Source: an uncultured Actinomycetes bacterium
GTDB taxonomy: Bacteria; Actinomycetota; Thermoleophilia; RBG-16-64-13
Direction: 5' to 3'
Assembly: GCA_963706025.1 (NCBI GenBank)
Contig: CAVPLM010000024.1
Span: 1 to 13,475, forward strand
Length of the DNA stretch: 13,475 bases
Position numbers and translations under genes: made by a program. The notes beneath the pieces were generated by a model, which saw only the letters and a program-made list of their open reading frames with translations, was not told the origin of the DNA and made no database searches. This document shows, in pieces, positions 1-13,475 of this stretch. Each line of letters opens with the position of its first letter. Positions within the stretch are counted from its first letter, which is position 1.

Positions 1-2
1 TG

Positions 3-1319
3 TGGGCCATCCTCCTCCTGCCCACATTGGGCGTGGCATACCTCCTCACCCGCTCCATCACTTCGCCGATCGAACGTCTGCAGCACATGACCGCGCGGGT
101 GGCAGCGGGTGAACTCGGGTATCGGACCAGCATCCGGACGAAGGATGAGTTGGGAGAGTTGGCCCAGTCTCTGAACAGTATGGCCGCCCAGCTCGAGATC
201 CGGGCGGGGCAGCTCGGGGCCGAGATGGAGCATTCCGGCCAGGTCTTGGCAGCCATGAGCGAGGGGGTCCTGCTCATGGACTCCGACGGGCGGCTACTCC
301 GAGGCAACCCGGCCGCGGGGATGATCCTGGGCGTTGATCTGCAGGGCATGGAAGGCCGGCCGCTGGTCTTGGCGGCGCGTTCGTTCCCTGCACTGGCTTT
401 GGCGCGCAAGGCGCAGGAGACCGGCGGAGCCATCACCGAGGTTCTTGAACTACCGGGAGGCCGGCTGTTGTCGGTCGAGGTCATCCCCCTGCAGTCGTCC
501 GAGGTGGGTACCCCGGGCGCGCCCTCTCGGGGCGCGCCCCGTGCCCTCACCGGGCAGACGCTCTTCGTCATCCGGGATGAGACGGCCCGGCGCGCCACCG
601 AACGGATGCGGCGTGACTTCGCCACCAATGTCTCCCACGAGCTCAAGACCCCCCTGGCCGGTCTCTCTCTGCTGGCCGGGACGCTCGGTCACGCCATCCG
701 GGAGGATCCGGAGCAAGCCGAGAAGTTCGTCGAAAGGCTCTCGGCGGAGATAGGACGTCTGACCGAGTTGGCGAACGATCTGTTGACCCTGTCGAGGCTC
801 GAAGAGCCGGAAGTCTCGACCGAGGCCGCTTTTGTGGAGGTCGACCTGGCCCGTCTGGCAGCCGAGACGGCCACCGAAGTGAGACCGCTGGCCACGGCGA
901 AGCACCAGGAGTTGACGGTCGACACGCCGGCGGCTGCCTTGGCGATCGGCGACGAAGTCGCCCTGCGCACCCTCATCCGCAACCTACTCGACAACGCCGT
1001 CCGCTACACCGAGACCAATGGACACATCGCCCTGGCAGTACGTCTCCGGGCCGGCGCCGACGGCCGGGATCGAGTGGTGCTCAGCGTGCGCGACGATGGA
1101 GTGGGCATACCCCAGGCGCACCAGCAACGTATCTTCGAGCGCTTCTACCGGGTGGACAAGGCCCGTTCGCGCGAGACAGGCGGGACCGGCCTCGGCTTGA
1201 GCATCGTGCGGCATGTGGCCGAGCGCCACGGGGGACGAGTCGAAGTGGAGAGCACGGTGGGCGTGGGCTCAACCTTCACGGTGACCCTGCCCGGCGCCCC
1301 GACTATGCCGACCGCCTGA
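3..1319 (+). CDS. phoR: PhoR/SenX3-like sensor histidine kinase (TM-HAMP-PAS-HisKA-HATPase), 5'-truncated by the window edge
   Basis: The frame is open from position 3 (WAILLLPTLGVAYLL, a TM helix), so TTG27 is not the true start. HAMP: SITSPIERL...DELGELAQSLNSMA. PAS: VLAAMSEGVLLMD...NPAA. H-box: RRDFATNVSHELKTPL. N-box: NLLDNAVRYT. G1: DDGVGIP. PhoR-type F/G2 box: RIFERFYRVDKARSRETGGTGLGLSIV. The kinase call is secure; the phoR symbol is less so. Confidence 0.85.
   Translation, partial: WAILLLPTLGVAYLLTRSITSPIERLQHMTARVAAGELGYRTSIRTKDELGELAQSLNSMAAQLEIRAGQLGAEMEHSGQVLAAMSEGVLLMDSDGRLLRGNPAAGMILGVDLQGMEGRPLVLAARSFPALALARKAQETGGAITEVLELPGGRLLSVEVIPLQSSEVGTPGAPSRGAPRALTGQTLFVIRDETARRATERMRRDFATNVSHELKTPLAGLSLLAGTLGHAIREDPEQAEKFVERLSAEIGRLTELANDLLTLSRLEEPEVSTEAAFVEVDLARLAAETATEVRPLATAKHQELTVDTPAAALAIGDEVALRTLIRNLLDNAVRYTETNGHIALAVRLRAGADGRDRVVLSVRDDGVGIPQAHQQRIFERFYRVDKARSRETGGTGLGLSIVRHVAERHGGRVEVESTVGVGSTFTVTLPGAPTMPTA
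499..553. repeat. Intragenic palindromic/hairpin element in the kinase PAS domain
   Basis: The self-complementary 10-mer GGGCGCGCCC occurs twice (515-524 and 530-539), separated by TCTCG. Flanking pairing is GGGTAC (506-511) with GTGCCC (541-546), and GGTG (503-506) with CACC (548-551) as an alternative. Confidence 0.7.
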
Positions 1320-1692
1320 GCCCCGCTCTCCGCGGGCCTGCGGTCTGAGGACGGGGGCGTTTGGTTGTCCAAACGGTCCACGCCGCGCAGAGAATGAGAC
1401 CCCCAGCCCACACCGAGACGGGCAGCCAAAACCACCACCTATCTGGCGTTCGGGCCAGATTCACGATGAAGAGGTTCCAGGCCCCGATCAAGAAGATCAT
1501 GATATGGGCCAACAACCATTCCCGCCGGGTGAGGCGTCCGCGGACACCGGGCTCCTCGTGGGAAGCCTCGGGCGAAGCATCGGTGCCCAGCATGTGGGCC
1601 GACTTCTCGTCCGCCAGCAACTGCTGGAGGATCTCGGAACCCATGCACGGCCTGGGACCGGGAGGATCCCTCCGCTCGAGGAGGAACCTCAT
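1303..1692 (-). CDS. 2TM-domain small membrane protein
   Basis: RREWLLAHIMIFLIGAWNLFIVNLARTPDRWWFWLPVSVWAGGLILCAAW fits the 2TM pattern (H...xN...IN...WFxWP...WG.GL..H). The start is uncertain: ATG1692 lies 2 nt after the upstream stop, and ATG1644 is an alternative. It overlaps the kinase 3' end by 17 bp. Confidence 0.75.
   Translation of the reverse strand: MRFLLERRDPPGPRPCMGSEILQQLLADEKSAHMLGTDASPEASHEEPGVRGRLTRREWLLAHIMIFLIGAWNLFIVNLARTPDRWWFWLPVSVWAGGLILCAAWTVWTTKRPRPQTAGPRRAGLRRSA
1320..1370 (+). terminator. Possible imperfect intrinsic terminator of the kinase gene
   Basis: Directly after the TGA at 1319, GCCCCG/CTC/CCGCG can pair with TGCGG/GAG/CGGGGGC as a bulged stem, followed by GTTTGGTTGT. 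Confidence 0.3.
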
Positions 1693-1694
1693 AG

Positions 1695-1940
1695 TCAGGC
1701 GGCCACCCGGGCCGACTCGTCCATCTCGAGCACTGGCGCAGCTGGGTCCGAGACCTCGGCAATACTCCCGACCGCGACCTCAGCCCCACAGCGCATACAA
1801 CCAAATAGACCTGACCCAGCCCTGGCCGGTGCGACCGGCGGCGACCATATACGCAGTGGGGAGCCACAGCAGAAACAGGGCGAATCCGCACCCCACGTTC
1901 TGACCTTGTCCGCCAGAGTGATCTCCACAATCACACTCAC
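1695..1940 (-). CDS. Small zinc-ribbon-like protein (81 aa)
   Basis: GTG start with GGGGAGG 5 nt upstream. Two Cys knuckles, PCFCCGSPL and GCMRCGAEV, about 22 residues apart. The stop is 2 nt before the next minus-strand ORF. Confidence 0.65.
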   Translation of the reverse strand: MSVIVEITLADKVRTWGADSPCFCCGSPLRIWSPPVAPARAGSGLFGCMRCGAEVAVGSIAEVSDPAAPVLEMDESARVAA

Positions 1941-1975
1941 CGGAACCTCCCCAGAGTGGGCGCTTCACTACACCA

Positions 1976-2018
1976 ACTCTAGAGAGAGGACGGGGACTGT
2001 GTGTTACCGCGAGGTTAA
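1976..2018 (-). promoter_or_regulatory. Candidate promoter: -10 TAGAGT plus an OmpR/PhoB-type tandem repeat TTAAC-N6-GTAAC
   Basis: The minus strand reads TTAAC(2018-2014)-ctcgcg-GTAAC(2007-2003), an 11-bp period, then TAGAGT (1981-1976) 21 nt downstream. No good TTGACA -35 is present. It lies in the 100-bp gap before the zinc-ribbon gene. Confidence 0.45.
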
Positions 2019-2040
2019 GACAGTGGAAAAACCGTGCACC

Positions 2041-3420
2041 CTAGTCGAGCACATCCAGTATCTCGGCCAGCGACCCTCGCACCGTGTGCTTGGCTATCCT
2101 CTCCAACTCCGGCCACCTGGGCCGGAAGGCGACGGAATTGCCTGCCGCCGCAAGAAGACAGGCGTCGTTCTCGCCGTCGCCGACCGCCAACACTCTCATC
2201 GGGTCCAGACCGGTCTTGTCGCAGAGATGAAGCATGATGTTCAGCTTGCAGTGCTCGTGCTTGGGACAGCCATGCTCATGGACCATGGCCGGCGAGAACG
2301 TGATGTCGCCAGTGGCTCGGCCCTGGCGGAAACGCATCAGGTGGGCTACGCTGAAGTCCGCGAACACTCGGCGCCGCACGGTCTCGGCGGCGATCTGATA
2401 GCTGTCCGTGACTACTCCTACCCGGTAGCCGGCACGGCGGAGCCCGACCACCGCTTCCACGGCCCCTTCGACCAAGGGAAGCTGTCGGGCGACCTCCACA
2501 AAGGTCTCCTGGTACTCACCGGCGAAGAGCGCGGCCAAGCTTCGGGTACGCACCTCCGCGGCCAACGTTGGGTTGCCAAGATACAGTCCCACTTCCTGGC
2601 TCCTCCCCGCGGCCTCGGCCAGCTGCTCGATGTAGCGACCATCGACCAGGGTCCCGTCCATGTCGACAAGCGCCAGCTTCTCGGTCAGCCCAAGCCGCGA
2701 GGATACAAGCGAGAACTCAGCCTCGGCCCTACGTTCGACTTCTTCGACCTCGCGGACTTGCGAGATGTTCAGCTTGTCATAGCGCCAAGCCCGGTCCATT
2801 ATCACCCGGACGACCTGCTTGGCCATATCACCGAGCACTTCGAGGGGGTGACTGTCGTGCTCGACCCAGCCGATGTTGACCTCTTCGATGCGCGCCTCTT
2901 TCGCGTTGGCGTCGAGGATCAAGCCAATATCGACCCCGTAGTCGGGCTCAAAGGACAGCTTCCGAAGCAGCCGACGCCGGGCCGCTATAACCCCGCCCAG
3001 AGGCTGGCGAAGTTCCGCGATCTCGGGAAAGAACAGACTTAGAAGCGGTCGGGCGGTGAGAGTGGTGACTTGCCCGGCCCTTCCAGAGAAACCGGCCTTG
3101 ACGAAATCGGCCCGGCCGGCGACGAGGGGCTCTACCAGTCTGGTGATCAGGTCGGGGTGAAGATCGACCAGGTCGCCGTCAAGATAGACGATCAACTCGC
3201 CGGCAGAAGCCCCCAGGCCGTCTTCCATCGAGGCTCCCTTGCCGAGGAAGGTGCTGGTGATAACAGTCGCTCCTGAAGCCTTCGCCAGTTCCGGAGTCTC
3301 ATCGATGGAGCCGTCGTCGACCACGATCACCTCGTCCACACCAGGCGAGCCGAGAGCAAACTCGACCAGGCGACCGATGGTGCTGGACTCGTCGACGACG
3401 GGGATGACGACCGAGATCAT
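2041..3420 (-). CDS. Bifunctional glucosyl-3-phosphoglycerate synthase-like glycosyltransferase (GT-A) / HAD-IB SerB-like phosphatase, 459 aa
   Basis: Start revised to ATG3420 (AAAGGAG 5 nt upstream; MISVVIP). GT part: VVDDGSIDET, GKGASM, DGDL (DxD), VKA...GQVTTLTARPLL..FFPE....QPLGG..AARR.LL..L.F..DYGVDIGLILD and EH, all typical of GpgS/actinobacterial MpgS. HAD part: LALVDMDGTL, VVTDS, Lys in HCKL, AVGDGEND. Confidence 0.85.
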   Translation of the reverse strand: MISVVIPVVDESSTIGRLVEFALGSPGVDEVIVVDDGSIDETPELAKASGATVITSTFLGKGASMEDGLGASAGELIVYLDGDLVDLHPDLITRLVEPLVAGRADFVKAGFSGRAGQVTTLTARPLLSLFFPEIAELRQPLGGVIAARRRLLRKLSFEPDYGVDIGLILDANAKEARIEEVNIGWVEHDSHPLEVLGDMAKQVVRVIMDRAWRYDKLNISQVREVEEVERRAEAEFSLVSSRLGLTEKLALVDMDGTLVDGRYIEQLAEAAGRSQEVGLYLGNPTLAAEVRTRSLAALFAGEYQETFVEVARQLPLVEGAVEAVVGLRRAGYRVGVVTDSYQIAAETVRRRVFADFSVAHLMRFRQGRATGDITFSPAMVHEHGCPKHEHCKLNIMLHLCDKTGLDPMRVLAVGDGENDACLLAAAGNSVAFRPRWPELERIAKHTVRGSLAEILDVLD

Positions 3421-3534
3421 TCTGGCTCCTTTCTCACGGCCGAGGGTGCGTCGCGTGAGAGGCGCTCGAGAATCTTGTAGGAGCCTGGGGGACAACCGGG
3501 AATCGGGAGAAGCCGTTACTGCTGCACCGAGATT

Positions 3535-4362
3535 CTATCGCTTCGAACCCTGCAAGGCCAGTATCGCCCCCTGCTCGAAGACCCGGGGGGTGTTGGTGAT
3601 CTGCAGGATCCCTCGGTCGTCCACGGCTACCGATGTGTTGAGACAGCCCCCTTCGGCGGCGGACTGGTAGTTGACCCTCACCGCTGCGGGCCTCAGTAAC
3701 GCGCCCGTCTCATCCACCGCCTCCAGATCGCTCCAGCGCACCGTGACCGACGGAGCATCGCAGTCGGCGAACACCTCCGACCACACGAGGGGGCGGACAA
3801 GGTGTCCGCCTTCGTTGCCGGCATCCACATAGAGGTCGCGGATCAACCGAGATCCGCCCGCGGCCACGTCGGTCACCTCTGCGCGCCACGCCCCCGGCTG
3901 GTCCGGCGAGCGAAAGATTCGAAGACGATACGGGCGGCCTGGCTCCCAGGAGTATCCAAGTGTGTGGGGATCGTCGGGGAAGCCTGGCAGATCGGAGATC
4001 GAACCAGAGAGTATCCCGCCCCCGTCCTCTTGCGACGCATATCCGCCCCAATTCACGGCGGTGTACCCAGGGTAACGCCGGTTCCACTGCAGGCCGGTAT
4101 GAGCGCCCCCGCGGAAACGGTCCCCTGCGAGGAAGTCCACCTGCAGGGCCCAGAAGTAGAGGGCCGGCACTTGGGGAGGGACCACGATCTCGAGCACGGC
4201 CGATACCTCGACCAGCCGGGCCGACCGCGCCGCTGCGGGCAGCTCCCAGACGAGATGGAACGAGGAGGCCCCGTTCGGCGAGCGGGGCGGGCCCGCTTCG
4301 CGCGGCCCGCCGCCACCTACCATGGCCGCAAGATTGCGCAGAGTGTCTGTCCATCTCGACAT
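3535..4362 (-). CDS. Hypothetical beta-rich protein, DUF3472-like, 275 aa
   Basis: Start revised to ATG4362 (GAAGAGG 6 nt upstream). The sequence is aromatic-rich and globular: YFWALQVDF, GGAHTGLQW, YSWEPGRPYRLRI, WRAEVTD, VWSEVFADC. These resemble the GGYxGLQ / YxWxxGxxY / FxExF motifs I associate with DUF3472. The gene is likely real; the family call is tentative. Confidence 0.6.
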   Translation of the reverse strand: MSRWTDTLRNLAAMVGGGGPREAGPPRSPNGASSFHLVWELPAAARSARLVEVSAVLEIVVPPQVPALYFWALQVDFLAGDRFRGGAHTGLQWNRRYPGYTAVNWGGYASQEDGGGILSGSISDLPGFPDDPHTLGYSWEPGRPYRLRIFRSPDQPGAWRAEVTDVAAGGSRLIRDLYVDAGNEGGHLVRPLVWSEVFADCDAPSVTVRWSDLEAVDETGALLRPAAVRVNYQSAAEGGCLNTSVAVDDRGILQITNTPRVFEQGAILALQGSKR

Positions 4363-4483
4363 GGGCGCCTCTTCGTGGGATCTAGAGGGCGAATCGCATC
4401 GGCCCTGCGCCTCACCGCGGGATCGCCACATTCTTACCCCGATGAAGATACCGCAAACGCGCCCGGCGGACGTTCGGCGACGA

Positions 4484-4492
4484 TGCTAGGAT
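4484..4492 (+). promoter_or_regulatory. Candidate extended -10 promoter (TGcTAGGAT) for the nucleotidase gene
   Basis: Matches TGnTAnnnT and lies about 83 nt upstream of ATG4576 in the divergent intergenic region. Confidence 0.4.
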
Positions 4493-4575
4493 GGGCGGGG
4501 TCGGCCGGCGCATCCGAGCATGCCCCGCACCGGTCTCACCGGCCACACCTGTCCTATGTCCGATGGGAGGTACAG

Positions 4576-6045
4576 ATGGGCGCTACGCGCAGGTTCACCA
4601 TCCTGCATTCCAACGACATGCACGGGGATTTCTTGGCCGAGCAGGAGGCAGGCGGGGGAGACCTCATCGGCGGCCTGCCCTTGCTCTCCGGTTACATCAA
4701 CAAGGTGCGCGCCGAGGAGGAGAACGTCCTCTACGTGATCTCGGGCGACATGGTGCAGGGGTCGATCATCGACTCCGACTTCAAGGGCACCTCCACCATG
4801 CAGATCATGAACTACCTAGCCCCCGACGTGGTGGCTCTGGGAAACCATGAGGTCGACTACGGCCTGCCGCACCTGCTGTTCCTGGAGAAGATCGCCAACT
4901 TCCCCATCGTCAACGCCAACCTCTACATCAAACCGTTCGAGAAGCGCATGATGCGCCCCTATCACATCGTCTCCAAGGCCGGGTTCGACATCCTCTTCAC
5001 CGGCATCCTCACCGAGAAGGTCATGGACTCCATCAAGCTGGACGAGCTCATCGGTACGTTCGTCACCCTCGAGGAAGCCGGCCTGGAGGTGGGCAAGATC
5101 TGCGACGCCTTCAAGAACGACGACGTCGACCTCACCATCCTCTTGACCCACATCGGTTTCGAGTCGGACAAGGAGCTGGCCGCCATGCTCCGGCCCGAAT
5201 GGGGCGTGGACATGATCATCGGCGGGCACAGCCACACCCTGCTTACCGAGCCCGAGCGGGTCAACGGCATCCTCATCACCCAGGCGGGCACCGGCACCAA
5301 TCAGATCGGCCGCTTCGACATCGTGGTGGACGACGACACCAACTCCATCGTGGAGTCGAAGTGGCAGCTCATCCCCATCGACGAGCACATCGCCGAGCCC
5401 GACCTGCGCATGGCCGAGTTCATCGAGTCCTTCAAGTCGGTGGTCGACCGCAAGTACAGCGTGATCATCACCAAGTTCGCCGAGACCCTCACCCATCCGC
5501 GGCGGGAGGAGGAGACGACGCTCGGAAACCTGTTGGCCGACGCTCTGGCCGAAGGAACGCAGAGCGACGTGGTGCTGCTGGGGGCCGGATCGGTGCGGGT
5601 GCGGGAGATGGGCCCTGCGGTCAGTCTCATGGATTTCGTCTCCTGCTTCCCCTACGACGACTCGCTCACGCGCTACACGTTGAGCGGCGCGGCCCTCAAG
5701 AAGGCGTTTGCTCACTGGATGCGTCCCGAGAACCGCGATGGGGAGGGGGAGTGCTATCAAGTCAACTCCGCCGTCCGAGCAGTCTATTCAAACGCGAGCG
5801 CCGGACTGGTATCGCTTTCGGTGAACGGCATCCCGGTGGACGATGGACAGACCTACACGCTCGTCCTGCAGGGTTACCACGCCAAGAACGCCGAGCCGTA
5901 TCTGGATCTGGCGCCGGATGAGCTCACGGCTGCCGGGCCGAGCAAAGTCGCGGCTACCTCAGCTCAGACGGTGCTACGCGAGTGGCTGCTTGCGCACCAG
6001 AACGTGAGCAGCAAGGTCGAGGGACGGTTGGTCTACCAGGATTGA
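4576..6045 (+). CDS. Bifunctional metallophosphatase / 5'-nucleotidase family protein (UshA-like), no signal peptide, 489 aa
   Basis: Start revised to ATG4576 (GGGAGG 5 nt upstream). Calcineurin-like motifs: TILHSNDMHG, SGDMVQGS, LGNHEVDYG, LTHIG, IIGGHSHT. C-terminal domain: ETTLGNLLADA, GSVR, FPYDD. The 258 upstream codons of the 747-aa ORF are mostly antisense to another gene plus intergenic sequence. Confidence 0.9.
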   Translation: MGATRRFTILHSNDMHGDFLAEQEAGGGDLIGGLPLLSGYINKVRAEEENVLYVISGDMVQGSIIDSDFKGTSTMQIMNYLAPDVVALGNHEVDYGLPHLLFLEKIANFPIVNANLYIKPFEKRMMRPYHIVSKAGFDILFTGILTEKVMDSIKLDELIGTFVTLEEAGLEVGKICDAFKNDDVDLTILLTHIGFESDKELAAMLRPEWGVDMIIGGHSHTLLTEPERVNGILITQAGTGTNQIGRFDIVVDDDTNSIVESKWQLIPIDEHIAEPDLRMAEFIESFKSVVDRKYSVIITKFAETLTHPRREEETTLGNLLADALAEGTQSDVVLLGAGSVRVREMGPAVSLMDFVSCFPYDDSLTRYTLSGAALKKAFAHWMRPENRDGEGECYQVNSAVRAVYSNASAGLVSLSVNGIPVDDGQTYTLVLQGYHAKNAEPYLDLAPDELTAAGPSKVAATSAQTVLREWLLAHQNVSSKVEGRLVYQD

Positions 6046-6070
6046 GGCCGTCCACACCCTCGAGGCCGCG

Positions 6071-6883
6071 TCAGTTGGATGGCACCCCTTCGGGCTCGTC
6101 CAACGAGTCGAGGAAGTCGCTCAAGCAGCGTTTGAGGAAGAACTCAAGGGCCGCGAAGGAACGTTCCAGTTCGAAGCCTTTGGGTCTAAGGGCAGCCTGC
6201 AGCGCGAGTCCGTCCACCACGGCGACCATCAGAGAGACGAAGCCTATGTATCGCTCTCGATTCTCCGGTCGCACCCGCTCCGCCAGCCCAAGCCACTCGA
6301 CGTTCATCTTGTAGTACCACTCATACAGGGCGGCGACTCGCTGGCGAAGCCGCTCGTCGCGTATTACGTAAGGCAGGAGGTCGAAGAACACGAGAAAGCC
6401 GTCCGCGTCGGCCGCCAGCCGGGTCTGGCCCTCGATGTACCGCTGCAGCCGCTCGTCGCCGGTGGTCCCCCGAGTGTGCTCGGCCAGGGCGAGACAATCG
6501 TCATAGTCCAGAGAGTCGAGGATGGCCAGGATAAGTCCATCTTTGTTGCCGAAGTAGTACTTGATGGAGGCTTTGTTCTTGCCCGCCTCGGCCGCGATGG
6601 CATCCAGCCGTAGCGCATCGAACCCGCCCGCGAGCAACAAGCGCCGAGCGGCTTCCAGAAGCTTCTGCGCAGTGTCGGGCAACGAAAGCGCGGGGTCCTC
6701 TACCGGGAACCCCAGGAGCTCGTGGACCTCCGCGGCTGCCGTGCCGGGGGCGGTGGCCGCCGAGGGTGTGATCGGGGCGGGGGCCGTGGGCGCCACGGGA
6801 ACGGACGCGGCTCCGGTCGCGGTCGCTGCTGCGATAGCGGGCGCGGCTCCAATCGTGGTGGCTTCCGGTGGGGAAGAGGTCAT
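6071..6883 (-). CDS. TetR/AcrR family transcriptional regulator with an N-terminal low-complexity extension
   Basis: HTH: KLLEAARRLLLAGGFDALRLDAIAAEAGKNKASIKYYFGNKDGLI. C-terminal AVVDGLALQ. The start overlaps the livM stop (ATGA) and has GGAGGAG upstream. Confidence 0.9.
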   Translation of the reverse strand: MTSSPPEATTIGAAPAIAAATATGAASVPVAPTAPAPITPSAATAPGTAAAEVHELLGFPVEDPALSLPDTAQKLLEAARRLLLAGGFDALRLDAIAAEAGKNKASIKYYFGNKDGLILAILDSLDYDDCLALAEHTRGTTGDERLQRYIEGQTRLAADADGFLVFFDLLPYVIRDERLRQRVAALYEWYYKMNVEWLGLAERVRPENRERYIGFVSLMVAVVDGLALQAALRPKGFELERSFAALEFFLKRCLSDFLDSLDEPEGVPSN

Positions 6884-7965
6884 GGGGTCTCCTCCGCGCC
6901 GGGTTCCACTGGCCGGGACTCGCGCCGGCGGCGAACAGCCGCCTGGACCGAGTCGATGGCTCCCATCATCCCGCGAGGAGCCAGCATCACCATGATCACG
7001 ACCAGCGCCCCAAAGATGAGTAAGCGCCAGCGGTCGAATTCACGTAGCCAATCGTTGACGAAGATGATGATGAACGCGCCAATTGCCGGGCCGGGAAACT
7101 TCCCGATGCCCCCCAGAAGCACCATGATGACAAGGTAGATGAAGACTTCGAGCCCCAAGACCCGAGGGGATACCACCCCCGTGTAGTGCGCGTAGAAGGC
7201 GCCCATCAGGCCCGTCATGAGCCCAGACAGCCCCACGATGAGAAGCGACACCTTGTACCGGGAGATACCCAGGCTCTGGGCGAAGGACTCTGAATCATGC
7301 AGGGCGACGAAGCTGGTGCCGAAACGGGAATTGATGGCGAAGAAACCGACCGCGAGGCAGACGATGAAAAGCCCCAGAGCGAGGTAATACCAGGGTATCT
7401 GATTCGACCCGCTGAAAGTATAGCCGCCGATGCTGTACGGGGTCACAGGTGAGATGCCTCGTTTGCCTCCGGTCCCGATTGCCGCGCCCACGGTCAGAAG
7501 CGGAGCCAACACTTCGTAGAAGGCGAGGGTCAGAAGGGCGATGTAGATGCCGGCCAACCGCAGACAGGGCAGACCGATAAGTACGGCGATGATTCCGCCG
7601 GTGGCCGCGCCGGCCAAGAGGCCCCACCACGGGTTTATGCCCGCGTTCTCCGACAACATGGCCGACGTATAGGCGCCGATGGCGAAGAACCCGATCTGGC
7701 CCAGATTGAAGATGCCCGCGTAGCCGAGTAGGAGATCCCAAGCTATGGCTACGCCGCCCCAGATCATGGAAACCACCAGCAGCCGCATGGTGTAGTTGCT
7801 GTCACCCAAGGCAAGGGGCAATAGCGCAAGGATGACGATCATGCCCATCACCATGCCGGTCTGGCGACTAAGCCGCAGGGCTTTGGGCCGGTCGCCCGGC
7901 AGTGGCGGCTCTTTCGTTCGGCCGCTCGTCCTTCCGTCGTTCATATCCGGCATATGGGCGGTCAT
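6880..7965 (-). CDS. livM: Branched-chain amino acid-type ABC permease (LivM family)
   Basis: WDLLLGYAGIFNLGQIGFFAIGAY, LRLAGIYIALLTLAF, SRFG..FVALHDSE..A.SLGI, MVLLGGIG...GP.IGA, APRGMMG. ATGA overlap with livH. Confidence 0.9.
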   Translation of the reverse strand: MTAHMPDMNDGRTSGRTKEPPLPGDRPKALRLSRQTGMVMGMIVILALLPLALGDSNYTMRLLVVSMIWGGVAIAWDLLLGYAGIFNLGQIGFFAIGAYTSAMLSENAGINPWWGLLAGAATGGIIAVLIGLPCLRLAGIYIALLTLAFYEVLAPLLTVGAAIGTGGKRGISPVTPYSIGGYTFSGSNQIPWYYLALGLFIVCLAVGFFAINSRFGTSFVALHDSESFAQSLGISRYKVSLLIVGLSGLMTGLMGAFYAHYTGVVSPRVLGLEVFIYLVIMVLLGGIGKFPGPAIGAFIIIFVNDWLREFDRWRLLIFGALVVIMVMLAPRGMMGAIDSVQAAVRRRRESRPVEPGAEETP

Positions 7966-8840
7966 CCTTTCCTCGCCGTGGCCCCGAACAGGCCGGCCGG
8001 ACGAACCAGAAGGATCAGGAACAGGACGAGGAACCAGAACGGCATCACCCAGAGGAGACCAAGCTTCCAGCCCACGATGGCTTCAAGGATGCCCAGAATG
8101 AAGGAAGCGTAGAGAGTGCCTTTGATGCTGCCCAAGCCCCCGGCGATGACGATGATGAGAGCCTTGACCAGGAAGGTCCAGCCGCCCAACGGCGTCATGA
8201 AGAACCGCGGCGCGAGCAGGATGCCCCCCGCCCCACACAGCAAGGTGGATATGCCGAAAGTGATGGCAAACACGCGAACCAGCGGGATCCCGACGATGCG
8301 TGCCCCCACGGGATCCTGGGCCACAGCCCGCATGCTCATGCCGGTGCGGGTCTTGGCCATGAATACGAAGAGCACAACGGCCACCACCAGAGCGAAGGCG
8401 AACATCGCCAGCAACTGCCAGCTGATGGTGAAGCCCCCGATCTTGACGCTCCCCTCCAGGAATGCGGGCAGAGATTTGGTGCGCGGTCCAAAGATCACGA
8501 GTACCAGGTTGTCCAAGAACACGGCCAGGCCCAGAGTGGCGAGCAGCACGCTGAACTCGAACTCCGGGCGGCTGCGCAGGGGCCGAATAATCACCTGGTC
8601 GACCGCCAACCCCATGAGGAACATGATCGGCAGCACGACGATGAACACTAAGAAATAGTTGAGCGACGCGTAGCCCACCGCGATGACCCAGGCCAGATAC
8701 GCGCCCCAGGTGAAGAAGGAGCCGTAGGCGTAGTTGAGTACCCGGCCCACCCCATAGCAGAGGGTGAATCCCACCGCCACCAGGAAATAGACGATGCCGA
8801 TGGTGAACCCGGTGATGAGCACTTCTATGAACTCTCGCAC
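7962..8840 (-). CDS. livH: Branched-chain amino acid-type ABC permease (LivH family)
   Basis: LVAVGFTLCYGVGRVLNYAYG, TRTGMSMRAVAQD..GARIVGI, IAGGLGSIKG, LVRPAGLFG. GTG start with GGAG upstream. Confidence 0.92.
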   Translation of the reverse strand: MREFIEVLITGFTIGIVYFLVAVGFTLCYGVGRVLNYAYGSFFTWGAYLAWVIAVGYASLNYFLVFIVVLPIMFLMGLAVDQVIIRPLRSRPEFEFSVLLATLGLAVFLDNLVLVIFGPRTKSLPAFLEGSVKIGGFTISWQLLAMFAFALVVAVVLFVFMAKTRTGMSMRAVAQDPVGARIVGIPLVRVFAITFGISTLLCGAGGILLAPRFFMTPLGGWTFLVKALIIVIAGGLGSIKGTLYASFILGILEAIVGWKLGLLWVMPFWFLVLFLILLVRPAGLFGATARKG

Positions 8841-8864
8841 CTCGGTCTCCGATCCCTCTCGCGC

Positions 8865-9572
8865 TTAGGTGATCCCCAGGAAGACCTTGCGCACCGCGTC
8901 GTCGCGCAGGGCCTCGTCTTTGCTGCCCGAGAACGCGATGCGCCCGTCTTCGAGGAGGTAGATGTAGTCCGACTGCTCCGCGATGTCGCCGGTGGTCTGC
9001 TCCACCAGGAGTATGCTGAGCCCCCGTTCCCGCAGAGCCACGATCTGTTCGAACACTTGCGTCCGCAGGATGGGCGCCAGACCGAACGAGGGTTCGTCGA
9101 TGGCCAAGAAACCCGCGTTTGACATGAGACCCCGCCCGATGGCCAGCATCCGAGCCTCGCCGCCGCTCAGAGTAAGGGCGGTCTTCTTTGCGAACTCCTT
9201 TAGTCGAGGGAACATACCGAAGACCAGTTCGAGATTCTCGGCTTCCTTCCCACGAGCGTTCTTGTTGTAAGCCCCCAAGCGCAGGTTCTCCATCACCGTC
9301 ATTTCGGGGAACAGATGGCGCTCCTCGGAGATGAGCACGACCCCCATCTCGACCAATCTATGCGAAGGCAGACCCTGTATCTCTTGACCCTCGAAGCGCA
9401 CGATCCCGCTGGCCGGCTTCATGAGTCCGCAGATGGTCTTGAGCAGGGTGCTCTTGCCGTGGCCGTTGGGTCCAAAAATCGACACCAACGCGCCGCTCTC
9501 CACACGCAGTGACACGTCGTGGATAGCCTGGTACTCGCCGTAGAAGGTGTTGATGCTCTCTACCTCAAGCAC
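8865..9572 (-). CDS. livF: ABC ATPase (LivF family)
   Basis: Walker A GPNGHGKST, signature LSGGE, Walker B LAIDEPSFGLAP and the LivF-type LVEQ. Confidence 0.92.
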   Translation of the reverse strand: MLEVESINTFYGEYQAIHDVSLRVESGALVSIFGPNGHGKSTLLKTICGLMKPASGIVRFEGQEIQGLPSHRLVEMGVVLISEERHLFPEMTVMENLRLGAYNKNARGKEAENLELVFGMFPRLKEFAKKTALTLSGGEARMLAIGRGLMSNAGFLAIDEPSFGLAPILRTQVFEQIVALRERGLSILLVEQTTGDIAEQSDYIYLLEDGRIAFSGSKDEALRDDAVRKVFLGIT

Positions 9573-10293
9573 GCTTACCCCCGACCAGGCATTCGATCAC
9601 AGCGGGGTCTTCTACCACTGCCCGGGGCTCGCCTATGCAGAGCATCTCTCCGTAGTTGAGAACCAGCATGCGATCGCACAGGCGGGTCAGCGCACTCATG
9701 AGATGCTCGATCATGATGATGGTGAGACCCCATTCCTTGTTCAAGCGCCGGATAAGGTCGAGGCTCTGCTCCGCTTCCACTGCGCTCAGCCCGCCCAAGG
9801 CTTCGTCCAACATCAGCAGGCGGGGTTTCGTGGCTAGAGCGGAGGCCAGCACGGTCAACTTCTTGTCGTAGAGCTTCAAAGTGCTTATGGGGCGGTCTTC
9901 CTTGCCCTCCAGACCGACGAAGGCGATGAGTTCGCGGATGTCGGTCCAAGGAACCCGGTGAAGAACCGTGTCACCTTTGCCGCCGTAGTACTCACCGATG
10001 CGCAGATTCTGGGCCACCGTCATGGAATGGAAAGGCTGGACCAGTTGGAAGGTGCGGGCTACACCCAGATGGGTGACGCGGTGGGGCGGCAGACCGTCGA
10101 TACGCTTACCATCGAGAAAGATGCGACCGGAACCGTGCAAGAAGCCCGAGATCAGATTGAAGACCGTGGTCTTCCCAGCCCCGTTCGGTCCGGCCATGCC
10201 GAAGACCTCCCCCTCCTGTACGTCGAAGGAGAGGTCGTTGACCGCGGCCAGCTCGCCGAACCGCTGGGTCACATGTTCCAAAGAGAGCAGCAC
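9565..10293 (-). CDS. livG: ABC ATPase (LivG family)
   Basis: Start revised to GTG10293 (GAGGA 9 nt upstream); the longer start at 10371 runs through the intergenic hairpin. Motifs: FGELAAVND, GPNGAGKTT, GVARTFQ, LMLDE, IEH. 8-bp overlap with livF. Confidence 0.9.
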   Translation of the reverse strand: MLLSLEHVTQRFGELAAVNDLSFDVQEGEVFGMAGPNGAGKTTVFNLISGFLHGSGRIFLDGKRIDGLPPHRVTHLGVARTFQLVQPFHSMTVAQNLRIGEYYGGKGDTVLHRVPWTDIRELIAFVGLEGKEDRPISTLKLYDKKLTVLASALATKPRLLMLDEALGGLSAVEAEQSLDLIRRLNKEWGLTIIMIEHLMSALTRLCDRMLVLNYGEMLCIGEPRAVVEDPAVIECLVGGKRA

Positions 10294-10329
10294 CTGGGTG
10301 GGTCCTCGATCCCTTCGCACCGTGTGGTC

Positions 10330-10365
10330 CGGAGCGGCGGCGGGACACGTCCCGCCGCCGCTCCG
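10330..10365. repeat. Perfect 17-bp inverted repeat after the SBP gene (mRNA stabiliser or partial terminator)
   Basis: CGGAGCGGCGGCGGGAC-AC-GTCCCGCCGCCGCTCCG, 17 nt downstream of the SBP stop. There is no U-tract on either strand. Confidence 0.9.
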
Positions 10366-10382
10366 TCTCATCGGTCGGGATG

Positions 10383-11702
10383 CTACTTAGCTTCCCAGGC
10401 CGGTTCGATGTACTGCGGCAGTACGAACTCGTCGGTACCGAAGAAGGCCAGCTCCCCCCCGCCCATGTACTGACCGTAGGCAATGGGGAAGTCGGGGCCC
10501 GCCTGCACCGTCTGCTCCGGGTTGTTGAAGTCGTACACGCCCAGCAGACCAGTGTACGGATTGGCCCTCATGTGATCTGCGATTTCCGCGTATTTGGTGG
10601 GATCACCCACGGCTTTGACCGCCTCCACCCAGATCATCACCGAGTCGTAGGTGGACGGAGGTGTCGTCAGGGGCACCGGCATCCCGAACATCTCCTCGAA
10701 ACGAGCTTTCCAGGCATCGTTCTCGGGGCTGGGAGGTACGAAGCTCGTCACGTACCCCATGACACCCGTGAGCGATTCGCCGACGGCCTCCTGGGTCTCC
10801 GTGAAGACGACCATGTAGGAGATGTCGAGCAGCGAGGGGGTGGGGTCCTCCATGAACTGCTTCACGAACGACGAGATGTCGGCCACCGACAGCACCGAGC
10901 ATACGATGGCGGCCGGCTCCAACGAACGGATCTGGGTCAGGATGGAGCCCCAGTCGGTGGTACCGTAGGGGAAGGTCTCGTTCATGACCACTTCCCAGCC
11001 GGCGGCTTCAGCTTCCGCCGCCACTGCTGCGGTGTAGTTGAGGTCCCACTCCAGGTCGCCGTGCAGGATGGCGATCTTGTTGTTGGGATAGGTGTACTGG
11101 TCTTCGAACTGGATCATGCCCTCCCAGGCACGTTTCCCGTACTCCGCCTCGACCGGGAACACCTGGAACATGTTGCCGAAGGTCTCGGGATCGCCACTGA
11201 CCATCTCGGCAGCCCGCACCGAGCCGCTACCGTGGACGAAGGGGACGTCGCTCTGGGCGCCGAAGGCCTCGAAGTCAGGGCCGTAGCCACCGTAGCCCTC
11301 GACCACGAAGTCGACTCCTTCTTTCTCGATGAGGTAGTCCTTGGAAGCAGCTACCGTCTCGGGGAGCAATTCCTGGATGTCGAACGTCACCAGTTCCACC
11401 GGGCGGCCCAAGAGACCGCCGGCCGCGTTGAGATCGGCCACCGCCATCTCCAGACCCATCTCCATGTGCTGCCCGTCGGCCGCGTAGGCTCCGGTCAGCG
11501 GTAGTGGGGCCCCTATCTTGATAGGCTCGCCGCTGGGCGGGGCTGCGGTGGTCTCAGTGCCTGCCGCGGTGGTCTCGGTACCGCCGGCGGTGGTGGTGGT
11601 CGCCTCTTCATCCCCTCCGCAGGCCGCCGCGAAAGCGGCGAGCGCGAGGATCACCAGGGCTGCTAGGAGCACGATCAGGATTGTGTTCTTTTCTCTTCGC
11701 AT
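10383..11702 (-). CDS. ABC substrate-binding lipoprotein, LivJ/LivK (periplasmic binding protein type 1) superfamily
   Basis: Basic N-terminus, hydrophobic stretch and lipobox AAAC-GG, then a Thr-rich tether. PIKIGAPLPLTGAYAADG, LNAAGGLLGRPVELVTFD, TTDWGSILTQIR, YDSVMIWVEAVKAVG, YTGLLGVYDF. Confidence 0.92.
   Translation of the reverse strand: MRREKNTILIVLLAALVILALAAFAAACGGDEEATTTTAGGTETTAAGTETTAAPPSGEPIKIGAPLPLTGAYAADGQHMEMGLEMAVADLNAAGGLLGRPVELVTFDIQELLPETVAASKDYLIEKEGVDFVVEGYGGYGPDFEAFGAQSDVPFVHGSGSVRAAEMVSGDPETFGNMFQVFPVEAEYGKRAWEGMIQFEDQYTYPNNKIAILHGDLEWDLNYTAAVAAEAEAAGWEVVMNETFPYGTTDWGSILTQIRSLEPAAIVCSVLSVADISSFVKQFMEDPTPSLLDISYMVVFTETQEAVGESLTGVMGYVTSFVPPSPENDAWKARFEEMFGMPVPLTTPPSTYDSVMIWVEAVKAVGDPTKYAEIADHMRANPYTGLLGVYDFNNPEQTVQAGPDFPIAYGQYMGGGELAFFGTDEFVLPQYIEPAWEAK
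11542..11604 (-). repeat. Degenerate 21-bp tandem repeat (about 3 units) encoding the SBP tether ATTTTAG-GTETTAA-GTETTA
   Basis: Plus-strand units: gctgcggtggtctcagtgcct / gccgcggtggtctcggtaccg / ccggcggtggtggtggtcgcc. Confidence 0.8.
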
Positions 11703-11718
11703 CTTTCTTCCCCCTGTC

Positions 11719-13221
11719 CTAAAGCGTTTTCTCTATGTCGATGGCCACCGTTTTCAAGTGGGTCACGTCATCGAGGGTGAAGCGGCCCCCGAGTCGTCCG
11801 TGGCCGCTCTTCGTCCCGCCTCCACCGCCGAAAGGCTCATGAGCTTCCCAGTAGTCGGTGCTGTCGTTGAAGACCACGTTGCCGGTGCGGAGCTGATCCG
11901 CATACCAGAAGCAGCGCTTGATGGATGAGGTAAAGACCGACATCTGCAGACCATAGCCGGTCTCGTTGGCGATCTCGACGGCTTCGGCGTCGGTGGTGAA
12001 CTCGATGACAGGCGCCACCGGCCCGAATGTTTCCTCCTGGTTGAGAAGCATGTCCCGCGTCACCCCGTCGATCACCGTGGCCGGGAAATACAGGTCGGTA
12101 GGCCGGCCGGATTCACGCGCCCCACCCATCAGGATCTCCGCCCCTTTCGCCCGGGCATCGTCAAGGTGCTGCTCGGTCTTGAGGGCCGTGGGTTCGTTGT
12201 TGAGCGGGCCCATGGTGGTGGCGGGATCCAGAGGATCACCGAGAACGTAGCCCTTGGCCTCCTTCATCAGCAGGTCCAGGAATTCGTCGTGGACCTTCTT
12301 GTCCACGAGGATACGCTCGGTCGCGCAGCACACCTGGCCGGCGTTGTAGAAGCAACCGAATGCCGCCGCCTTCGCGGCCTCCTCGAGGTTGGCGTCGGCG
12401 CAGACTATCTGCGGACCATTGCCACCCAGTTCCATGAGAGTCATTTTGATGCCGGCCCGCGAGCAGATGGCCTCTCCGGTCACGGTCTCGCCGGTGAAGC
12501 CGATGAGAGCCACATCCGGGTGGGCCACCAGATAGTCGCCCACCACCCCTCCCGGACCGGTCACCAGATTGAAGACGCCCGGAGGCAGATCGGACTCCTC
12601 CAGCGCGTCTTGGATGCACCGCCCGACCAAGATCATGGAGAGCGGGGTCGTGGAAGCCGGTTTCATGACCACCGTGTTGCCGACCGCCAGGCCCGGCCCC
12701 AAGTACTCGGAGGGAATCACGGTAGGGAAGTTCCACGGTGTGATGACCGCCATGACCCCGTAGGGCTCCCGGAAGGTCAGCACGCGCTTCGCGGGGTCTC
12801 GCATAGGGATGACGGGGGTCTCCATACGCACCACGTCTTCGGCGGCCAGCTGGAAGTTGAGGGCGGTCTCCAAGACCTCGGGCAGGGCCTCACCAGCGTA
12901 GGGCTTCCCTTGCTCCACCGAGAGCACTCGAGCGATCGGCTCGGCCCGTTCCCGGATGAGCTCCGCCATGCGCAGGATCACTTCGGCCCGCTTGAACACC
13001 GGCATCGCCCGGTAGGCCGGCCAGGCCGCCTTGGCCGCGGCCACCGCGGCATCGATGTCGGGAGCTGCGCACTTCGGCACCTCGGCGAGGACCGCCCCTG
13101 TCACCGGACTGCGGACCGCGAATCTGGCTCCCGAGAGGGCGTTCACCCACCGGCCGGCGATAAGATTGCTCCTGTCCTCGAGCTCCTCGGGTATCACTGC
13201 CTTGCTGCTTGCACCGACCAT
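11719..13221 (-). CDS. NAD(P)-dependent aldehyde dehydrogenase (semialdehyde dehydrogenase-like)
   Basis: ITPWNFP, KPASTTP, FTGETVTG, catalytic MELGGN and NAGQVCCA, EETFGPV, PFGG...KSGHGR. GAAGGGGGG precedes the ATG. Confidence 0.95.
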   Translation of the reverse strand: MVGASSKAVIPEELEDRSNLIAGRWVNALSGARFAVRSPVTGAVLAEVPKCAAPDIDAAVAAAKAAWPAYRAMPVFKRAEVILRMAELIRERAEPIARVLSVEQGKPYAGEALPEVLETALNFQLAAEDVVRMETPVIPMRDPAKRVLTFREPYGVMAVITPWNFPTVIPSEYLGPGLAVGNTVVMKPASTTPLSMILVGRCIQDALEESDLPPGVFNLVTGPGGVVGDYLVAHPDVALIGFTGETVTGEAICSRAGIKMTLMELGGNGPQIVCADANLEEAAKAAAFGCFYNAGQVCCATERILVDKKVHDEFLDLLMKEAKGYVLGDPLDPATTMGPLNNEPTALKTEQHLDDARAKGAEILMGGARESGRPTDLYFPATVIDGVTRDMLLNQEETFGPVAPVIEFTTDAEAVEIANETGYGLQMSVFTSSIKRCFWYADQLRTGNVVFNDSTDYWEAHEPFGGGGGTKSGHGRLGGRFTLDDVTHLKTVAIDIEKTL

Positions 13222-13269
13222 AAGCCCCCCTTCACGATCCTTGCATCGCCAACGTTCTCGTGGCTCAGG

Positions 13270-13473
13270 TCAGAGCCAACGGGTGCTGCGCCGGGCGAAA
13301 CGCAGACCGGCGCGTTTGAGGTCTTCGACATAGGCCAAACGCACTTGGCGCGCCAACCCTTCCGGCGGGAGCACCCCTCTCTGCGTGATGGTGCCGTCGA
13401 GGAGGTAGCCGGCGTAGATGGCGGCAGGAGTAGACGTCCCATACGAGATGCGGTTCGCCCCCGGGATCATCTG
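13270..13473 (-). CDS. C-terminal fragment of a saccharopine dehydrogenase-family protein (5' part outside the window)
   Basis: The frame is open to the window edge. ISYGTSTPAAIYAGYLLDGTITQRGVLPPEGL....YVEDLKRAGL fits the C-terminal pattern SYxTGxPAxIxAxxLxxGxxxxxGVxxPE...L...GL of saccharopine dehydrogenase, carboxy(nor)spermidine synthase and lysine 6-dehydrogenase proteins. Confidence 0.7.
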   Translation of the reverse strand, partial: QMIPGANRISYGTSTPAAIYAGYLLDGTITQRGVLPPEGLARQVRLAYVEDLKRAGLRFARRSTRWL

Positions 13474-13475
13474 GG

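Follow-up and report, generated by a model that had tools for sequence, protein, structure and literature searches.

What does a protein make that joins a glycosyltransferase (GT) to a phosphatase in one polypeptide, and does the copy found at this locus still make it? The question is raised by an open reading frame (2041..3420, minus strand) in a 13,475-nucleotide stretch of DNA from an uncultured Actinomycetes bacterium (contig CAVPLM010000024.1, positions 1 to 13,475; hereafter the window), which encodes P0001, a protein of 459 amino acids (aa) composed of a GT81-like glycosyltransferase, a helical linker and a phosphatase of the HAD-IB/SerB fold. Our answer, to which we give an even chance, is that in this family a single chain produces a sugar-glycerate solute, most probably glucosylglycerate, and that the window copy combines a weakened or dead transferase with an intact phosphatase. 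For the fusion family, two-step glycosyl-hydroxy-acid chemistry is highly probable as judged from sequence, and glucosylglycerate as the specific product appears likely.

The preliminary description of this DNA had claimed a fusion in one polypeptide, and this was borne out: the frame is stop-free from the ATG at 3420 to the TAG at 2041-2043, and both domains were matched by profile, by PDB sequence and by fold. A Shine-Dalgarno-like AGGAG (3426..3430, minus strand) lies 5 nt before the ATG. Residues 1-215 (2776..3420, minus strand) constitute a GT-A domain of a short-loop GpgS-like branch, as indicated by alignment to 4y6n/3ckj, Foldseek and structural Z scores. They are followed by the linker (residues 216-245; 2686..2775, minus strand), which includes the stretch QVREVEEVERRAEAE (residues 222-236) and in the predicted model forms a helix at 228-243, with low confidence at 220-230. 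Residues 246-459 (2044..2685, minus strand) constitute a HAD phosphatase domain with a C1 cap, recognized by its motifs and a Z score of 25.1 to 1f5s. The linker and the HAD motifs, i.e. DMDGT (253-257), TDS (338-340), K392 and GDGEND (414-419), are as described earlier. Pfam placed a GT2-clan domain at residues 3-140 and HAD domains at 248-427, and the top NCBIfam ranks were taken by GpgS (NF010496, 176.9 bits) and SerB (TIGR00338, 83.5 bits), both under their cut-offs. The best PDB sequence matches were mycobacterial GpgS (E 1e-33), R. xylanophilus MpgS (2e-20) and SerB (1e-14). An AlphaFold model built with 103 sequences (pLDDT 88.9, pTM 0.86) gave the Z ranking GpgS 27.5, MpgS 26.8 and M. 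jannaschii phosphoserine phosphatase (PSP; 1f5s) 25.1, followed by dolichyl-phosphate mannose synthase (DPMS) 21.7, MgS 21.5 and MtnX 20.0; with Foldseek, its GT half matched GpgS at E 1e-20 and an rmsd of 1.6 A. The best 120 of 1414 homologues all cover 97-100% of P0001 (55-82% identity), and being all full length they show that the joining of the two domains is not a product of chance.

The GT half of P0001 keeps P7, E11, S38, K61, D81-x-D83, V118, T119, the QPLGG loop, Y161, D164, H188 and M199, whose equivalents in M. tuberculosis GpgS are Pro50, Glu54, Ser81, Lys114, Asp134/136, Val186, Thr187, the PLSGE loop, Tyr229, Glu232 (Asp for Glu), His258 and Met269, respectively. The fusion family, represented here by 122 sequences (120 listed homologues, the query among them, plus two other copies from the same assembly), also keeps the equivalents of Arg167 and of Gly184-Arg185-Val186-Thr187, the latter forming an acceptor clamp with G in 121, R in 120, V in 121 and T in 122 of the 122. 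The MgS residue equivalent to Arg167 is presumably a glycerate binder. According to the structural account of M. tuberculosis GpgS, Val186 and Thr187 hold the carboxylate of phosphoglycerate, the acceptor loop probably contacts the acceptor, and Ser81 is modelled as excluding guanine (PMC2581804). The Ser81 equivalent is invariant in the fusions (122/122), which favours UDP- or ADP-glucose as the donor.

The same conclusion on kinship was reached by phylogenetic analysis. In a careful tree of 68 GT rows (24 fusions, 6 unfused short-loop, 16 long-loop and 22 other GT2s), the fusions, short-loop and long-loop rows were separated from the 22 other GT2s with a support of 100/99; two of the four outgroup rows tested were best matched by polyprenyl-phosphate GT2 models. 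On P0001 such models were weak (AglJ 73.8, DPhHxTase 29.2 and ArnC 23.1 bits vs 176.9 bits for GpgS), and the Z score of 27.5 to GpgS compares with 21.7 to DPMS and 15.7 to ArnC. Tree, Z scores and profile scores thus agree with the earlier proposal that the domain groups with GpgS rather than with dolichol/undecaprenyl-phosphate GT2s. A larger tree of 150 rows, run in quick mode after 18 degenerate, fragmentary or duplicate rows had been dropped, placed all 73 fusions inside a short-loop group of 112 rows and the 38 long-loop rows apart (SH-aLRT 99).

The short-loop group differs consistently from canonical GpgS in an acceptor loop some 5-11 residues shorter, in the absence of Glu212, Arg256, Asn260 and Arg261, and in Asp at the position of Glu232; at the canonical PLSGE Glu212 and R-x-H-R-N-R (256-261), P0001 reads PLGGV and V-E-H-D-S-H. 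Several observations of this kind count against assigning glucosylglycerate too readily. The cut-off of the GpgS equivalog model NF010496 (262 bits) was missed by P0001 (176.9 bits), by six other fusions (170-198) and by the short-loop branch (166-198), and was exceeded by 4/4 long-loop controls tested (314-360 bits). With the four canonical residues gone, the substrates of the short-loop branch are assigned by analogy, and among the short-loop members that could be identified none is biochemically characterized. The loop of the fusions is PLGG, as in the mannose-using MgS, and not the PLSG of GpgS (PMC2581804), which makes any choice of donor tentative. Finally, an unfused short-loop GT in Methanobacteriales suggests that the branch may serve other acceptors.

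These features could also mean that the short-loop branch uses another donor or acceptor, e.g. GDP-mannose, which would give mannosylglycerate, or a phosphorylated 2-hydroxy acid of another kind, the product being a related solute or an unknown one. The branch is distinct, its loop is short and MgS-like and lacks the four residues named above, its unfused members are core in Methanobacteriales or stand beside an amidotransferase (locus L180), and a precedent for relaxed choice exists in R. xylanophilus MpgS, which has dual specificity (PMC3240985). We nevertheless consider this unlikely, as the GRVT carboxylate clamp is kept, the guanine-excluding Ser81 equivalent is invariant, and the nearest characterized folds, GpgS and MpgS (Z 27.5 and 26.8) as well as MgS (21.5), all use glycerate acceptors.

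Short-loop GT domains outside the fusion were found in several contexts. All 41 Methanobacteriales genomes (41/41) carry an unfused GT81-like protein (~575 aa) that has membrane segments and, at its C-terminus, a domain of unknown kind (L004:6877-8607; also L203-L208); its neighbouring genes are common to the three loci compared. Another unfused short-loop GT, of 237 aa, is encoded at L180:6313-9456 (G008:C1, minus strand), with genes for an asparagine-synthase-type amidotransferase and a HAD-IIB phosphatase after it in the same orientation; the three may be an operon for an amidated solute, e.g. a glycosylglyceramide. In P0207 and P0226, the fusion partners of short-loop GT domains are a nucleotidyltransferase and a polysaccharide pyruvyltransferase domain.

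If glucosylglycerate is the likely product of the fusion, can the second half complete its synthesis? The HAD catalytic residues of P0001 are intact (D253-x-D255, T338, K392, D415 and D419). In PSP, as described in PMC6321591, Glu20 contacts the serine amine and Arg56 the phosphoserine carboxylate. The Glu20 position is occupied by R262 in P0001 and by Arg in 121/122 close homologues; Glu was found there in 0/41 distant full-length fusions, and is carried by three SerB-like controls. At the Arg56 position P0001 has L295 and 116/122 sequences have Ile (Ile, Leu or Val overall in the HMMER alignment), and R291, one turn before it, is invariant. Motif II of the fusions is T/S-D-S, not the SGG of SerB. 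An additional loop, C385-x2-H388-x2-C391-K392, inserted relative to SerB, is together with C421 invariant in 122/122 sequences (2158..2268, minus strand), which suggests a possible metal site.

Profile searches placed the domain near SerB and outside its defined family: the SerB cut-off of TIGR00338 (144 bits) was missed by P0001 (83.5 bits) and by six other fusions (72-124 bits). With the HAD-IB model TIGR01488 (cut-off 45 bits), P0001 scored 39.1 bits, and of the six other fusions four scored 48.8-77.5 bits, a fifth 44, and the sixth was unlisted at E 1e-10. The domain is not of the classical HAD-IIB GpgP/MpgP type, having a helical C1 cap after motif I in place of a C2B cap between motifs II and III and aligning with IIB structures over only ~136 core residues, and the MPGP model TIGR01486 was not among the 25 best NCBIfam matches of P0001. 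The earlier view of a phosphoserine-phosphatase-like HAD domain is supported by the SerB fold and the intact motifs; the Glu that binds the serine amine is replaced, and the domain would fit a phosphatase re-tuned for an anionic, amine-free substrate.

Could the HAD domain instead be a housekeeping phosphoserine phosphatase, fused incidentally? SerB is its closest fold, and no protein of the assembly matches the SerB family better than the three fusion HADs, the model having detected no separate SerB there. We regard this as extremely improbable, given the replacement of Glu20 in all sequences examined, the change of Arg56 to Ile/Leu and of SGG to T/S-D-S, the score of 83.5 bits against a cut-off of 144, and the presence of the fusion in only 8/24 genomes of the same family, where it varies between haplotypes.

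In the proposed pathway, the GT-A domain would bind a divalent metal via D81-x-D83 and H188 and transfer the glucose of UDP- or ADP-glucose to the O2 position of 3-phosphoglycerate, yielding glucosyl-3-phosphoglycerate; V118/T119 would hold the acceptor carboxylate and the loop arginines its phosphate. In the HAD step, D253 would take over the phosphate, whose subsequent release would give glucosylglycerate and Pi, with the cap arginines R262 and R291 taking over from the residues that bind the amino acid in SerB. Being anionic and free of nitrogen, the product could then act as a counter-ion or osmolyte alongside Na+/H+ antiporters, K+ uptake, CLC, MscS and trehalose/sucrose genes.

Each half of this scheme has known counterparts, from which the fusion differs. 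Actinobacterial GpgS (GT81; Rv1208, M. hassiacum; 4y6n, 5jqx, 7p5l) has the same fold (rmsd 1.6-2.3 A, 38-40% identity); the fusion differs in carrying a phosphatase and a shorter loop and in falling below the NF010496 cut-off, and its window allele also in lacking the loop arginines. Mycobacteria employ a separate histidine phosphatase for the GpgS pathway (PMC3240985). The R. xylanophilus MpgS (3f1y), a dual MPG/GPG synthase, likewise shares the fold (Z 26.8, 30% identity), and no phosphatase domain aligns within its solved chain. SerB (M. jannaschii 1f5s; M. avium) shares with the fusion the HAD core, the C1 cap and the four motifs (Z 25.1, 28% identity), and is set apart by the Glu20 to Arg and Arg56 to Ile/Leu exchanges, the new invariant Arg, T/S-D-S and the inserted C-x2-H-x2-C loop.

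The one-chain logic proposed here is that of Dehalococcoides mccartyi MgsD, in which one polypeptide converts NDP-sugar and 3-phosphoglycerate to glycosylglycerate (PMC8490865), and synthase-phosphatase fusions are described as a recurring design in two-step solute pathways (PMC10873239). The components of the present fusion are different, the fold of T. thermophilus MpgS reaching only Z 17.4 (12% identity) and the HAD domain being of the C1-capped IB/SerB type. MgsD itself combines an MpgS of the Thermus/Pyrococcus type with a HAD-IIB MpgP. HAD phosphatases also finish the two-step solute pathways of classical GpgP/MpgP (HAD-IIB) and GgpPS; the former have a cap class other than the C1 of the fusion, and GgpPS, a producer of glucosylglycerol, has its domains in the reverse order.

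Is the copy in the window still able to carry out both steps? P0001 is off the consensus at 9/137 near-invariant columns, the highest number among the 122 sequences (median 1). The nine departures are L9V, N10D, A49S, R113G, R117Q, D182N, R216K, D282G and I295L, of which 7/9 lie in the GT half or at the start of the linker. Two of them fall in the acceptor loop (3070..3084, minus strand), where G113 (GGA) and Q117 (CAA) stand at positions with Arg at both in 120/122 sequences; R113 and R117 of the family correspond to Arg167 and Arg185 of M. tuberculosis GpgS. The preliminary description was right in recognizing a GpgS-type GT-A domain, with the correction that not all GpgS motifs are intact: the window copy has G-Q-V-T plus G113 instead of the family G-R-V-T. 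An assembly error behind G113 and Q117 was ruled out, as the same letters occur in contigs of runs X1 (2954-3116) and X3 (2926-3166), which come from two other studies and span these codons with one other difference. Codons 9-10 are spanned unchanged by contigs of X2, X3 and X5.

Among 19 variant sites in public contigs, the ratio of non-synonymous to synonymous changes was 7:2 in the GT half, which fits the neutral expectation, and 3:7 in the HAD half, which departs from it (p = 0.004). Branch-specific changes were raised in both halves (13 GT, 11 HAD), and the relaxed constraint in the window allele may be wider than the GT half. One RNA run contained two contigs identical to the gene, both in the HAD half, and none from elsewhere in the 13.5-kb window; they give a weak hint of expression, the run having been found with this same gene. 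Taken from the sequence data, the transferase half of the window allele is probably impaired, i.e. weakened or dead, and the phosphatase half intact. With two near-invariant acceptor-loop arginines lost, the window copy is a poor choice for an enzyme assay.

Some of the data speak for a less damaged protein. DxD, K61, T119, D164 and H188 are intact in P0001, R114 might stand in for the lost arginines, and the role of Arg185 as a binder of the acceptor phosphate is our assumption. The direct contrast between the GT and HAD halves reached only p = 0.07, based on 19 sites and a contig depth of 2-5, and one strain variant, R262S, alters a conserved HAD residue. The chemistry might be the same and the window allele still a full synthase-phosphatase, in which R114 and backbone amides replace the lost arginines. 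The residues for metal, donor and carboxylate are in place, a good ribosome site precedes an uninterrupted frame, runs from several studies contain near-identical alleles, and the RNA run, for what its two contigs are worth, points the same way. We consider a fully working allele improbable, as P0001 is the most deviant of the 122 sequences and has lost both of the arginines kept in 120/122, the GT-half variants match the neutral expectation, and the RNA contigs lie in the HAD half only.

A role of the family in osmotic and ion balance, in line with the compatible solute proposed earlier, is supported by its gene neighbourhoods. These were examined by running Pfam on 88 selected flanking proteins, which then served as queries around the fusion loci; locus L176 (a duplicate of L001) and L180 (unfused GT) were left out of the count, giving 28 fusion loci. 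The flanks contain Na+/H+ exchangers of three kinds, CLC, MscS, TrkA/H, a Na/Ca exchanger, a cation ATPase and sodium symporters, as well as universal stress protein, trehalose (OtsA/OtsB/TreT) and sucrose-phosphate genes; the copy on contig C3 of the assembly faces otsA/otsB, and that on C27 adjoins mgtC. An ion-transport or solute gene was present within 3 kb of 13/28 fusion loci in leave-one-out counts (17/28 with self-hits), and within 6 kb of 16/28 (20/28). Controls gave 1.5% of random sites in the host assembly, 1/50 other GT2/HAD loci and 5/20 canonical GpgS loci (4 trehalose, 1 transporter). For transporters alone, the figures were 12/28 fusion loci vs 1/20 canonical GpgS loci (p = 0.007). 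The partners vary by lineage (CPA, NhaD-like, CLC, MscS, Trk, trehalose genes). Glucosylglycerate is described as a substitute for glutamate as K+ counter-ion under nitrogen limitation (PMC5381378), a role that fits the ion-transporter neighbours of the fusion. It tells against this argument that the neighbour categories were picked after the loci had been inspected, that related loci are non-independent, and that the window locus has none of these osmotic neighbours.

Directly upstream of three planctomycete fusions there is also a gene for a small membrane protein (~105-117 aa) that gave no match in Pfam (L184:9962-10273, L185:9946-10260 and L189:8260-8610), and a similar-looking one lies near a fourth (L182:16968-17321). 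Furthermore, the fusions on C3 and C27 and those of genomes G003 and G007 carry an N-terminal domain of 80 residues with no Pfam match, probably a winged helix according to Atlas leads (L002:10896-11147, L001:9645-9893, L173:8423-8653; related stretch at G000:C11:59419-59640).

The association with transporters could be read in another way, namely that the fusion, or its half-dead forms, mainly regulates or signals to the neighbouring ion transporters rather than producing bulk solute. Besides the excess of flanking transporters over canonical GpgS loci and the probable winged-helix domain of some copies, this might explain why 20/41 distant full-length representatives lack at least one catalytic residue (21 are intact in both domains, 8 lack HAD residues only, 5 GT residues only and 7 both). 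Such a role is very unlikely in our opinion: the partners differ between lineages, which is a better fit to a general osmotic cluster than to one dedicated partner, synthase-phosphatase fusions making bulk solute are known (MgsD, GgpPS), and representatives from 50% clustering over-sample decayed sequences.

How widespread, then, is the proposed solute-making fusion? It is common but unevenly scattered over bacterial phyla, with some archaea included: clustering at 50% identity gave 174 clusters that reached E 1e-30, and the source names of the fusions include Planctomycetia, Blastocatellia, Riflebacteria, Rubrivivax, Chitinophagaceae, Verrucomicrobia, Thermoleophilia and Ca. Iainarchaeum. The host of the window is itself probably a member of Thermoleophilia, as judged from a named fragment with 68% identity. 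The full-length fusion was found in 8/24 genomes of the same family as the window and in 0/16 from other families of the class. With at most six candidates scored per genome, 2 of the 251 genomes surveyed around an Acidobacteriota record had it, among them the central genome, which had been chosen for carrying the fusion; around a Planctomycetaceae record, the figure was 7 of 251, and two more were split or broken. Pattern scans detected at least 1 full fusion among the 48 loci listed from genome contigs and 9 among 80 metagenome loci, and a plasmid search gave 3 matches, to the GT half only. A search with the HAD domain alone returned 106 proteins, mostly from short contigs and apparently fusion fragments; it established no stand-alone family, the absence of which cannot be demonstrated in this way.

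The preliminary description had also proposed that the HAD domain was recruited independently, and this was not established by the trees. In the best rooted 68-row tree, canonical GpgS is nested among the fusions (95/89 and 95/81), and an archaeal fusion is among the deepest rows; a tree forced to keep the short-loop rows as one group is only 7 log units worse, so that the opposite order is not rejected (AU p = 0.178). A tentative scenario, which we think possible but doubtful, is that the fusion of a short-loop GT with a SerB-like HAD is an old, cross-domain, one-gene route to glycosylglycerate, from which canonical GpgS was derived by loss of the phosphatase; the HAD domain would then be a further SerB-derived, probably metal-loop-bearing class of glucosyl-phosphoglycerate phosphatase, and the gene would have been passed as a single-gene cassette into ion-homeostasis clusters. 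Phosphatase loss in the ancestor of GpgS, if true, would explain why mycobacteria recruited an unrelated histidine phosphatase.

At the locus itself, the gene behaves as an accessory single-gene insertion. Its approximate extent is 2040..3540: in the syntenic sister contig C4, a stretch of ~1.5 kb is missing that runs from the stop codon to a point a little upstream of the gene, and no match to the gene was found at the syntenic site in five relatives (G001, G002, G003, G007 and G015; a contig break cuts off the match in G002). The C27 copy, too, is absent from the syntenic C5. No convincing terminal repeats were found at the insertion ends. The insertion is flanked by genes for a PhoR-like HAMP-PAS histidine kinase (3-1319, plus strand), a small protein with two transmembrane segments (1303-1692, minus), a protein of ~275 aa that is beta-rich by eye, has no Pfam/NCBIfam match and is conserved in the five relatives searched (3535-4362, minus; directly upstream), and a UshA-like 5'-nucleotidase (4576-6045, plus). 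Farther on (6071-13221, minus) are genes for a TetR regulator, a branched-chain-amino-acid-type ABC transporter and an aldehyde dehydrogenase; these probably constitute a catabolic operon that has nothing to do with the fusion.

Several strains are mixed in the assembly (7.3% contamination), where the window region recurs on C2, C4 and C6. Near-duplicate haplotype contigs of ~85-99% identity (C2, C4, C6 and C24; C17/C5 vs C27; C1/C8/C29) make copy-number claims from this assembly unsafe, and between the C27 copy and genome G003 the identity is 99%. The idea of three paralogues in one cell was rejected as unsafe for these reasons, together with the absence of the C27 copy from C5.

The fusion genes are now labelled as 'phosphoserine phosphatase' or 'HAD-IB phosphatase', and our literature searches found no published description of a fusion of a GT with a SerB-type HAD, although a mention in print is still possible. 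By the tests run, the fusion lies outside the GpgS equivalog, SerB, classical GpgP and MgsD families, and yet in the proposed pathway it would work like GpgS plus GpgP. If this is true, the pathway would gain a new phosphatase lineage, together with a one-gene cassette for a protein-stabilizing solute, as mgsD is for mannosylglycerate, and glucosylglycerate synthesis would be far commoner in microbes of soil, sediment and freshwater than screens for gpgS plus gpgP show, the lineages concerned being Thermoleophilia, Planctomycetota, Acidobacteriota, Bacteroidota, Betaproteobacteria and some archaea.

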